From UHGV virus genome UHGV-0184544: a stretch of 27,297 bases of DNA; one strand, written 5' to 3'. A program made the position numbers and the translations under genes. The notes below the pieces were generated by a model. The model was not told the origin of the DNA. It worked only from the letters and a program-made list of their open reading frames with translations, and searched no databases. Positions within the stretch are counted from its first letter, which is position 1, and every line of letters begins with the position of its first letter. This document shows, piece by piece, positions 12,397 through 12,544 of the stretch. The stretch comes from a virus.

Positions 12397-12436
12397 ATAT
12401 CTGAATTTCATCGCGCATCTCACGCGCATATCACAT

Positions 12437-12535
12437 CCCCGAGCCTTTCAGAAAGTTGAGCCTGAGAACTGCCGTATATGGTGGCGACCATCTCGGGGCG
12501 GCTTTTCTGTGAGACAGGCTCAATTTTCTGAAAGG
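12437..12535. promoter_or_regulatory. Structured leader upstream of rha: 21-bp inverted repeat (1 mismatch) plus a 7-bp inverted repeat in interleaved order
   Basis: CCTTTCAGAAAGTTGAGCCTG (12444-12464) versus CAGGCTCAATTTTCTGAAAGG (12515-12535); CCCCGAG (12437-12443) versus CTCGGGG (12492-12498). Read directly. Confidence 0.55.
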
Positions 12536-12544
12536 TAAGACGCT

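Follow-up and report, generated by a model that had tools for sequence, protein, structure and literature searches.

In the repZ/repA leaders of IncI-alpha and IncB plasmids (ColIb-P9, pMU720), a 5'-GGCG-3' loop pairs next to a sequestered ribosome-binding site (RBS); this pseudoknot forms only after translation of a leader peptide and activates translation, and an antisense RNA blocks it. The operator pseudoknots of rpsO (S15) and of the alpha operon (S4, nested) are held by a cognate repressor that the operon itself encodes. The c4 RNA of phages P1 and P7 is a processed, trans-acting RNA of ~77 nt that uses two short loop-target pairings. Here we describe a leader of ~135 nt in front of rha, located at positions 12412-12547 on the + strand of a 27,297-base viral sequence (hereafter, the window), that shares features with each of these systems. 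Like the repZ/repA leaders, it has a hairpin loop that pairs beside a sequestered downstream RBS, with long-range pairing that we propose to act in translational control, but it has no conserved leader ORF, it contains three long-range pairings, and its Shine-Dalgarno (SD) sequence lies in a helix of 19-21 bp. As in the rpsO/S15 and alpha-operon/S4 mRNAs, a pseudoknotted 5' leader includes the translation start and the fold would decide productive 30S initiation; in contrast to them, the downstream products differ between copies. In common with c4 on icd-ant and with the P22 sar/ant pair, antirepressor-type genes have an RBS to which another RNA segment is complementary, on the same strand and upstream as for c4, and tight post-transcriptional control is proposed: the 5' arm of the main helix pairs with the SD region upstream of Rha, KilA-N, and ANT genes. 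Unlike in c4, however, this complementarity is part of a continuous intramolecular helix of 19-21 bp accompanied by pseudoknots, and the leader has no Rfam match. The type I toxin mRNAs (hok, tisB, zorO), Mu mom/Com, and the lambda N leader with RNase III also fold away the start sites of toxic or dosage-sensitive genes and need processing or a helper, as we propose here, although their folds are simpler (hairpins or 5'-3' pairing) and have an established activating step.

The initial annotation had singled out a 21-bp inverted repeat with one mismatch around a 50-nt core, interleaved with a 7-bp repeat, and a repeat search recovers both exactly as described. The arms of the longer repeat lie at 12444-12464 (CCTTTCAGAAAGTTGAGCCTG) and 12515-12535 (CAGGCTCAATTTTCTGAAAGG), are 95% complementary, and are spaced 50 nt apart; the sole mismatch between them (G12455 opposite T12524) becomes a G.U pair when the + strand is read as RNA. 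The shorter repeat joins CCCCGAG (12437-12443) to CTCGGGG (12492-12498), such that the left arm of the 7-mer is followed by the left arm of the 21-mer, and the two right arms then come in the same order. Within the window, the 21-nt repeat ranks first among inverted repeats and is the only one of at least 15 nt with >90% complementarity within 150 nt; by our own estimate, 64/4^21 per position pair over ~2.7e6 pairs, ~4e-5 such repeats are expected by chance. A 164-nt region folds with −59.9 kcal/mol compared with −42.7 ± 4.0 kcal/mol for dinucleotide shuffles (z = −4.3), and none of 200 shuffles reaches the native energy. Together with the covariation of the paired strands described below, this bears out the view of a highly structured rha leader.

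Both repeats are helices of a larger fold, made up of five nested helices (P0, P1, P1b, P2, and P3) and three long-range pairings (Pa, Pb, and Pc), that we find in 89 distinct sequences. The leader follows a terminator-like + strand hairpin (12372-12397; AGCCAGC-TTAATC-GCTGGCT plus a T-run), itself an inverted repeat, that borders the cassette on its 5' side and is located directly 3' of the Rz stop codon; our terminator scan listed it on the − strand only, and the phi80 and HK106 records annotate a "terminator" at the matching position. The 5' end of the leader precedes both repeats and consists of the P0 hairpin (12413-12427), in which GCGC (12413-12416) pairs with GCGC (12424-12427) around the loop AUCUCAC (12417-12423). 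P0 forms in 13 of 13 single-sequence folds, was visible in the flank of the initial annotation as an 11-nt tandem repeat (CGCGCATCTCA/CGCGCATATCA), and carries a CG to UA change at one stem pair in Providencia/Proteus copies. Next comes the 5' strand of Pa (12437-12443), which abuts the base of P1. P1 (21 bp), a 6-nt 3' bulge, P1b, P2, and P3 then form one long bent hairpin, such that the "core" between the arms of the 21-nt repeat is itself helical. The 5' arm of P1 (12444-12464, 21 nt), supported by the repeat and by minimum free energy folds, pairs through its first six bases, CCUUUC, with the SD sequence GAAAGG (12530-12535) in the 3' arm (12515-12535). Thirteen of the 21 P1 pairs change on both sides. 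P1b (AGAA, 12465-12468, with UUCU, 12505-12508) covaries as AGGA/UCCU, GGGAAA/UUUCCC, AGAG/CUCU, and AGAAAUAUC/GAUAUUUCU. The 5' strand of P2 is GCCG plus U75 (12471-12475) and its 3' strand is CGGC (12499-12502), separated by a 2-nt internal loop from the 3' strand of P1b; the stretch 12499-12508 resembles a terminator U-run. P2 is 100% paired, and all five of its pairs change on both sides (CGGC/GCCG, AUCG/UGAU, CCGG/CUGG, AGUUG/CGGCU). P3 (12478-12491) pairs AUGGU with ACCAU around the loop GGCG (12483-12486), shows AU/UA and GC/CG swaps in its stem among copies, and is missing from two divergent copies (the second copies of L090 and L011).

The three long-range pairings connect the remaining segments, and each is supported by covariation. 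Pa joins its 5' strand to CUCGGGG (12492-12498), which lies between the 3' strands of P3 and P2. Its cells are paired in 92.8% of cases, compared with 76% in shuffles and 50-62% with slid partners; two positions show three or four standard pair types, and the variants include CCCCGAG/CUCGGGG, CGAGAG/CUCUCG, CCAAGAG/CUCUUGG, CUCAGAA/UUCUGAG, and CACAGAA/UUCUGUG. In Pc, UCUCAC of the P0 loop (12418-12423) pairs with GUGAGA (12509-12514), the 3' bulge between P1b and P1; this bulge stays unpaired in all of the 13 single-sequence folds except that of L156, which adopts another fold. Six of the seven Pc pairs change on both sides, matched by 0 of 1000 shuffles, and the observed combinations include UCUCAC/GUGAGA, UCGCA/UGCGA, GUCGCA/UGCGAC, CUCGCA/UGCGAG, UAGCAC/GUGCUA, UCACAC/GUGUGA, UCGUAC/GUGCGA, CUGACAU/AUGUCAG, UUCUCC/GGAGAA, and CGCAC/GUGCG. 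Finally, Pb pairs the P3 loop with CGCU (12541-12544), the spacer directly 5' of the AUG. Loop and spacer combine as GGCG/CGCU or CGCC, AGCG/CGCU, GCGG/CCGC or CCGU, GGCA/UGC, UCGGA/UCCGA, UCGGU/ACCGA, GGUUA/UAACC, UGGUU/AACCA, AUCGGU/ACCGAU or ACUGAU, CAUCGU/ACGAUG, and GGCGA/UCGCC.

Across 36 homologous leaders, 90.4% of paired cells hold a pair, compared with 81.5% in shuffles (0 of 500 reaching the native value) and 35-47% with slid partners, and 40 of 65 pairs change on both sides, compared with 14.8 in shuffles. Counting separately on 83 and on 89 distinct rows, we obtained consistent results for every helix. The alignment used for counting was fitted by hand to the structure, which biases it toward that structure, and many of the sequences are close relatives. 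Plain MAFFT alignment of both subfamilies (see below) followed by RNAalifold recovers P0 alone because the alignment is too shifted, and we therefore relied on a covariance model, a hand-made N-padded structural alignment, and single-sequence folds. Among the latter, 12 of 13 independent folds agree on the nested architecture, with the strands of Pa, Pb, and Pc left free. The pairings are also strand specific: G.U outnumbers C.A by 30:2 in Pa, 54:0 in P2, and 49:3 in Pb (133:5 in total), a bias that makes sense only for + strand RNA. These data show the structure of the leader, its conservation, its strand, and its fixed position relative to the start codon. Its natural variation includes defective copies, with a broken Pa (L143), without P0 (L009, L050), or truncated (L168, L071), so either single parts are dispensable or those copies are dead. 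Mismatches within P1 are conserved in most relatives (C49.A30 in 84 of 90), and two or three are typical; the mismatch-free 21-bp P1 of the window is atypical for the family.

The fold encloses the translation start of rha (12545-13096, + strand, 183 aa; Pfam Phage_pRha, E = 4.6e-26, and ORF11CD3, E = 6.9e-24). In the main family the SD sequence lies inside P1, and the pairing is kept where its sequence differs (CAC/GUG in the second copy of L051). The spacer between SD and AUG is paired in Pb, which in some copies includes the AUG itself, and it covaries with the P3 loop despite the different genes that follow. Because the base of P1 holds the SD and Pb holds the spacer, the fold locks the entire translation start, and the pseudoknot includes it as in protein-operated leaders. 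Even without the pseudoknots, opening positions −17 to +12 around the rha start would cost 20.1 kcal/mol, the highest value of the eight window genes compared.

The leader is widespread. One subfamily comprises 150 phage records in which it is 78-99% identical in front of different genes; a second comprises 305 records, which may overlap with the 150, including Stx1/Stx2 phages, ST64B, ST104, and ECP1. It occurs in 528 of 5426 complete Escherichia coli genomes and in many genera of Enterobacterales; a match in one DH5alpha record precedes a GIY-YIG nuclease gene. Conservation of the leader exceeds that of the flanking coding sequence, with similarity stopping approximately at the start codon. 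By domain, the cargo genes encode Phage_pRha (Rha), KilA-N, ANT (Ant), T5orf172, and HNH_3 (HNH) proteins, the last exemplified by the HNH endonuclease of ECP1, and each cassette of a tandem array has its own leader. An upstream hairpin with a T-run is present in 103 of 114 distinct upstream flanks. The leader is annotated in none of the phage records, and literature queries with gene and sRNA names, the topic, and verbatim stretches of sequence returned no description of it. Stx-phage records do annotate a 39-codon ORF across the subfamily-2 leader; its differences from ST64B, judged by eye, are mostly non-synonymous and compensatory for RNA helices. A leader ORF whose translation unfolds the structure is not a general feature, since the window has no start codon in its open frame and phi80 has a different short frame.

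The leader does not correspond to a known RNA class that we compared it with. A gathering-threshold scan of the window against Rfam 15 returned only STnc100, in two copies elsewhere in the window, and nine related loci returned only tRNA and STnc100; E-value scans of both subfamilies to E = 10 gave chance-level matches to microRNAs and leaders (13-20 bits against cut-offs of 35-88). The model set presumably includes a C4 antisense RNA family. AgvB and AsxR have Rfam families of their own, neither of which matches the window, and the Pas sRNAs were rejected as an identity, as they adjoin the holin/lysozyme operon rather than the leader locus. HDV-like ribozymes, which are nested double pseudoknots, likewise have a 7-bp helix between the 5'-most strand and a strand after P3, and a second helix, which the 3' end closes, interleaves with it. 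Here, however, P1b and P2 enclose P3 and the 3' strand of Pa, P4 is absent, the candidate J4/2 stretch preceding the final strand is engaged by the P0 loop in Pc, and no Rfam ribozyme matches, and we rejected this identity. A kink-turn at the 6-nt bulge was likewise rejected, as the bulge pairs with the P0 loop and no unpaired G.A partners lie opposite. P1 does have the length of a candidate RNase III substrate (at least 20 bp of double-stranded RNA, approximately two turns), with 21 bp, one G.U, and a duplex energy of −34.3 kcal/mol.

Two of the readings raised by the initial annotation, an attenuator-type switch and a pair of DNA operators, fare poorly against these data, whereas its suggestion of a pseudoknot stands: compensatory changes keep both interleaved pairings in the same sequences. 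Choice between termination and read-through by mutually exclusive hairpins could draw on the interleaved repeats and on the hairpin and U-run seen in the window, but we consider it highly improbable. The two pairings are compatible as a pseudoknot, and no conserved, mutually exclusive anti-terminator pairing was found in the 13 single-sequence folds or in the alignment. We ruled out an intrinsic terminator formed by P2/P3 and the U-run (12503-12508), as UUCU pairs with AGAA in the covarying P1b; in subfamily 2 the run is interrupted (UACUCCU, GAUUCCU). Moreover, lambdoid late transcription is Q-antiterminated and passes intrinsic terminators. A function in the DNA itself, as paired operators for looping or as a conserved linker serving as a recombination junction between phage modules, would suit the end of similarity at the start codon with varying cargo and the high nucleotide identity across genera; we consider it as improbable as the attenuator, however, as protein-binding half-sites or linkers are not expected to show so many double-sided pair changes, three covarying long-range pairings, and a strand-specific excess of G.U, and it is complementarity rather than sequence that is conserved. 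Recombination at the border may nevertheless explain how the leader spreads. Release of the 5' part as a small RNA that, in the manner of c4, would be a same-strand antisense against the downstream RBS, either in cis or, in co-resident phages, in trans, is very unlikely but slightly less so. In its favor, the RBS of antirepressor-type genes has full complementarity to the segment upstream, the P2/P3 hairpin with UUUUCU resembles a terminator in the window, and the sequences of Pa, Pb, and Pc differ between subfamilies and tandem copies like specificity types. Against it, that U-run is a helix strand, no Rfam family matches, a sigma-70 scan finds no promoter between terminator and start codon or inside the leader, the −10 consensus is not kept in the variable linker (judged by eye), and no specific complementarity to a trans partner exists in the window, including the two STnc100 copies.

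Two further explanations accept the fold as a cis-acting element and differ in what it does. As a stability or processing element, it would be a roadblock to RNase E or an exonuclease, or a site that splits the lysis mRNA from the downstream mRNA, with SD burial secondary. Its constant place 3' of a terminator-type hairpin at a late-operon module boundary and a compact fold with every conserved base paired fit this explanation, which we nonetheless judge unlikely: pure stability does not need a 3' end fixed at the start codon, or an SD and spacer that are strands of covarying helices. Somewhat less doubtful is a gated sensor, riboswitch-like or protein-operated and comparable to the S15 and S4 operators or to Mu Com/mom, in which a ligand or a phage or host protein (IHF/HU-like or ribosomal) stabilizes or melts the fold and thereby times antirepressor synthesis. 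Three long-range pairings in ~135 nt are a complexity typical of riboswitches and protein operators, the translation start forms part of the pseudoknots, and the phi80 record ties Rha to IHF-deficient hosts by its remark "DNA synthesis inhibition in IHF- hosts"; by eye, the IHF consensus (WATCAANNNNTTR) has no consistent match. Once Pa, Pb, and Pc are counted, however, no unpaired nucleotide is conserved across subfamilies, leaving no obvious ligand pocket, and the unpaired segments (the P0-Pa linker, the 2x2 loop, J2/3, and the A-rich spacer between SD and Pb) vary in sequence and length. In addition, no alternative conformation is conserved, a P1 of 19-21 bp is far more stable than usual switching helices, and autoregulation by the product is excluded, as the downstream proteins differ between copies.

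On balance, we favor, with some confidence, the interpretation that this conserved, multiply pseudoknotted + strand leader acts in cis to lock the translation of cargo genes that are transcribed late. Translational repression by the leader is deduced from the burial of the start site, and the geometry that would enforce it from strand continuity. The 3' strands of P3, Pa, P2, and P1b are continuous, so these helices could stack into one rod of approximately the length of P1. Pc would fasten this rod to P1 at the top, and Pb together with the direct Pa-P1 link would do so at the bottom, suggesting an arrangement of three rods. The helices could form in the order of transcription, and we find no pairing in competition with the fold. 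Such a lock would keep Rha-, KilA-N-, and Ant-type proteins, nucleases, and other cargo almost untranslated on an abundant Q-antiterminated late transcript, while the upstream terminator would block other transcription, and only cutting or opening of the fold would release it. How it might open is speculative: RNase III cleavage of the long P1 duplex is our leading guess, and a phage or host RNA-binding protein is an alternative. A permanent lock would give no reason to retain the gene, which counts against this interpretation, as may the HNH endonuclease of ECP1, which might need to be expressed. More tentatively, and with considerably less confidence than in the lock itself, we entertain a new class of large, ligand-free, "architectural" RNA device, in which a self-clamping three-helix bundle is an exchangeable gated expression slot of Enterobacterales phages for antirepressor-type and nuclease cargo, opened by a specific trans-acting key. 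That key might come from the host, as a nuclease, a chaperone, or a signal of its state, or from the phage, as a protein.

The leader is present in well-studied phages (phi80, HK620, ST64B, and the O157 Stx1/Stx2 phages) and in approximately a tenth of complete E. coli genomes, such that an intricate and unannotated RNA fronts genes capable of toggling prophage states or damaging the host. To RNA biologists, the leader is of interest as a compact structure of 135 nt in which three long-range pairings, independent of one another, are each backed by covariation and no ligand pocket is apparent; for engineering, its cargo junction approximately at the start codon suggests a natural, portable, and presumably very tight translational lock. 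If the idea of an architectural device were true, the key would, in Stx phages, tie the fold to cross-induction of prophages or to the release of toxin. If the fold gates the cargo genes, it would supply a control step missing so far from the picture of late gene expression in lambdoid phages and may bear on prophage-prophage interference and on the biology of Shiga-toxin phages.

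A repeat search recovered both inverted repeats that the initial annotation had reported ahead of rha (12545-13096, + strand), namely 21-nt arms at 12444-64 and 12515-35, 95% complementary and 50 nt apart, and 7-nt arms CCCCGAG (12437-43) and CTCGGGG (12492-98), in the interleaved order claimed. In + strand RNA the sole mismatch of the 21-nt repeat becomes a G.U pair. The rest of the window holds no inverted repeat of comparable quality, and the + strand of the leader region folds far more stably than its shuffles (z = -4.3). The second-best inverted repeat, at 27100-27150 (CATGAAGCATGACGGCAGGCA / TGCCTGCCGTTTTTTTTCATG), resembles an intrinsic terminator, with GGCAGGCA...TGCCTGCC ahead of a T8 run. 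The leader lies in the late operon of a Sepvirinae-like lambdoid prophage without stx, with endolysin (10875-11408), Rz (11901-12368), a small-terminase-like gene (13396-14202, + strand) and the large terminase (14183-15889). The small-terminase-like ORF encodes a short acidic repetitive stretch (KIDHEIDHKTDHEIDHDISDEE...), and its homologue in a relative is annotated 'terminase'. Two tandem copies of STnc100, a prophage sRNA family, lie on the + strand at 7044-7237 (139.9 bits) and 7513-7721 (129.8 bits) with no stx genes in the interval; the same interval of the related Stx2 phage Lyz12581Vzw holds tRNA genes, stx2AB and one STnc100 copy downstream of stx2B.

Comparison of divergent copies revealed a conserved architecture of nested and pseudoknotted helices on the + strand. 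The nested helices are P0 (12413-16/12424-27), P1 (the 21-nt repeat), P1b (12465-68/12505-08), P2 (12471-74/12499-502, plus U75 with an extra base in many copies) and P3 (12478-82/12487-91). Three long-range pairings join them: Pa (the 7-nt repeat), Pb, between the P3 loop (12483-86) and 12541-44, and Pc, between the P0 loop (12418-23) and a bulge (12509-14). In dot-bracket form, 12412-12547 reads
.((((.<<<<<<)))).........[[[[[[[(((((((((((((((((((((((((..((((...((((({{{{)))))]]]]]]]))))..))))>>>>>>))))))))))))))))))))).....}}}}...

Both repeat pairings are kept by compensatory change, in line with the pseudoknot reading. Pa occurs as CCCCGAG/CUCGGGG, CGAGAG/CUCUCG, CCAAGAG/CUCUUGG, CCUAGAG/CUCUGGG, AGAGAG/CUCUCU, CUCAGAA/UUCUGAG and CACAGAA/UUCUGUG; Pc as UCUCAC/GUGAGA, UCGCA/UGCGA, GUCGCA/UGCGAC, CUCGCA/UGCGAG, UAGCAC/GUGCUA, UCACAC/GUGUGA, CUGACAU/AUGUCAG, UUCUCC/GGAGAA and CGCAC/GUGCG; and P2 as GCCG/CGGC, CGGC/GCCG, AUCG/UGAU and CCGG/CUGG. 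Pb, which required register shifts between clades in the alignment, varies as GGCG/CGCU, AGCG/CGCU, GCGG/CCGC, GGCA/UGC, UCGGA/UCCGA, UCGGU/ACCGA, GGUUA/UAACC, AUCGGU/ACCGAU and CAUCGU/ACGAUG. One comparison is especially telling for Pb: the Stx phages L175 and L176 carry one and the same ant gene and spacer, yet their P3 loops differ and pair with that spacer in different registers (loop/spacer UCGGU/ACCGA and GGUUA/UAACC, respectively), and in L179 the L176 leader precedes another gene, with whose spacer the loop pairs (UGGUU/AACCA).

We built the structural alignment by hand because MAFFT misplaces indels; MAFFT left it unchanged, and gaps were coded N and set aside in counting. Among 36 representative sequences, 90.4% of 2029 cells were paired versus 81.5 +/- 0.4% in shuffles (0/500), 40 of 65 pairs changed on both sides versus 14.8 in shuffles, the covariation score was 0.205 versus 0.076, and partners slid by 1-3 columns were 35-47% paired, figures to be read with the alignment fitted to the structure, the sequences related and the statistics not tree-aware. 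A separate count over 89 distinct rows agreed helix by helix, the percentage paired lying above all 1000 shuffles for every helix, and the number of double-sided pairs likewise for Pc, P1 and P2. As a less fitted check, single-sequence MFE folds gave the same nested architecture in 12 of 13 diverse copies, with the Pa, Pb and Pc strands unpaired; plain MAFFT with RNAalifold over both subfamilies recovered P0 alone. Over the 89 rows, G.U is far commoner than C.A, with ratios of 30:2 in Pa, 54:0 in P2 and 49:3 in Pb, so the RNA is the + strand, in the rha sense. P1 is an exception, with C.A at 12449/12530 in 84 of 90 members and, in most, a further mismatch immediately below the upper 7 bp; the window's variant, of Stx type, has a perfect helix and is unusual in that.

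These patterns bear on the readings in the initial annotation (ALTERNATIVES), among which, by sequence comparison, the pseudoknot alone stands. An attenuator switch is not supported, no mutually exclusive pairing being conserved, and both the compensatory changes and the strand bias run counter to paired DNA operators. We also rejected a terminator reading of the 50-nt core (hairpin plus UUUUCU): that stretch forms the 3' side of the covarying helix P1b, and it is not rich in U in subfamily 2, to which the leader between R and Rz of Stx phages belongs.

A search with the intergenic stretch gave matches in 150 phage records, 78-99% identical. Main-family carriers include phi80, HK620, HK106, SPN3UB, g341c and Klebsiella, Pantoea and Enterobacter phages, and the genes behind their leaders are annotated variously as Rha, KilA-N, DNA-binding or hkbK. 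In the first alignment the core was near-invariant and similarity ended at about the start codon; judged from such alignments, the leader is more conserved than its neighbours. Pattern scans added 120 viral contigs and 44 species-representative genome contigs, giving, with the window and annotated phage loci, 152 instances and 99 distinct sequences. Within Enterobacterales, the range explored, true copies occur in Escherichia, Citrobacter, Enterobacter, Pantoea, Rouxiella, Rahnella, Buttiauxella, Brenneria, Providencia, Proteus and others, and the leader is present in 528 of 5426 complete E. coli genomes, with no annotated feature beneath it except the start of the downstream gene. Leaders on metagenome-assembled contigs assigned to Cellvibrionaceae (L139), Bacillota (L158/L167) and Collinsella (L164) are identical or nearly so to E. 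coli/Salmonella phage copies and most likely reflect contamination or mis-binning.

A covariance model built from 25 sequences recovered every first copy, along with divergent second copies (38-66 bits) at the same loci, each before another cargo gene, and a further copy (54 bits) in Stx phages, where it precedes an antirepressor gene lying between R and Rz. This last copy belongs to subfamily 2, found in 305 phage records, among them Stx1/Stx2 phages of O157, Shigella phage 7888, ST64B, ST104 and ECP1. The extra terminator-leader-antirepressor cassette of Stx phages (9680-10249 in L175) has no counterpart in the window at 11408-11901. Several other loci hold two cassettes in tandem whose Pa sequences differ, as do those of Pc in most cases, which may avoid cross-pairing on one transcript.

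Some copies are altered. In one Stx2a lineage (Stx2_EH1965-type; L009 1541-1668 and L050), an 11-nt deletion between direct repeats CGCGCATCTCA/CGCGCATATCA removes P0 and hence Pc, the remaining leader being intact, and GUCG replaces GCCG in P2, giving a U.G pair. A Shimwellia pseudoproteus copy (L143 4386-4521) joins a phi80-type Pa 5' strand to a window-type 3' strand, leaving only 3 bp; a Brenneria copy (L168 2277-2406) lacks everything 5' of the P1 top, and L071 (3783-3916) lacks the 3' half. These three are recombinant or truncated copies, possibly natural 'mutants' of the fold. Small 'hypothetical protein' ORFs annotated over the leader (L175 9529-9648, Lys12581Vzw_17; L180 655-846, ORF41; L004 1476-1634, minus strand, SPN3UB_0070) are probably annotation artefacts, since what varies from phage to phage is for the most part non-synonymous and, in the RNA helices, compensatory; the Stx-phage ORF has AGG 7 nt before its AUG and ends at UGA in the bulge.

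The fold encloses the translation start. The P1 3' arm has the SD GAAAGG (12530-35) at its base, Pb takes up the spacer adjoining the AUG as its 3' strand, and the AUG itself lies within Pb in several copies. Opening the start region costs 20 kcal/mol without counting pseudoknots, the highest among eight window genes compared; duplex energies are -12.7 (Pa), -6.9 (Pc) and -4.5 (Pb) kcal/mol. The Pa 5' strand abuts the P1 base and its 3' strand abuts P3 and P2; because P3, Pa, P2 and P1b share one continuous strand, they could stack into a rod of about P1 length, with Pc clamping the hinge, a geometry that we infer.

Terminator-like hairpins precede the leader in 103 of 114 distinct upstream flanks, a sigma-70 promoter scan found no promoter-like site at the leader, and the cargo varies: Phage_pRha + ORF11CD3 in 86 of 149 instances, otherwise KilA-N (with ORF11CD3 or P63C), ANT, T5orf172/MUG113, HNH_3 + AP2 and a few unknowns. 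Together, these features suggest a cassette ordered terminator, lock, cargo. Q antitermination makes late transcription terminator-resistant; only such transcription would enter the cassette, and even then translation of the cargo would stay minimal unless something opened the fold. The leader is thus modelled as, most likely, a translational lock, working like known RBS-sequestering leaders. No unpaired base is conserved once all pairings are counted, which argues against a ligand pocket. Our leading guess is RNase III processing of P1, since the typical substrates of this enzyme include duplexes such as this one of 21 bp; the analogy is with processing-activated expression from type I toxin mRNAs and the lambda N leader. 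Alternatively, a helper protein could open the fold, as with Mu Com.

A copy 89.9% identical to the window's precedes a GIY-YIG nuclease family gene in E. coli DH5alpha (NZ_CM135829.1, 4526862-4526996), perhaps a phi80 lacZ-deltaM15 remnant, and public DH5alpha data might serve for looking at the leader RNA. The leader had no match in Rfam 15 at any threshold and no description in the openly accessible literature searched, literal sequence strings included. Single features recall the IncI-alpha repZ pseudoknot, the S15 and S4 operators and c4-ant, and the leader is a member of none of them. Overall, sequence comparison indicates that the leader is a new, widespread RNA fold, for which we infer a role in controlling its cargo.
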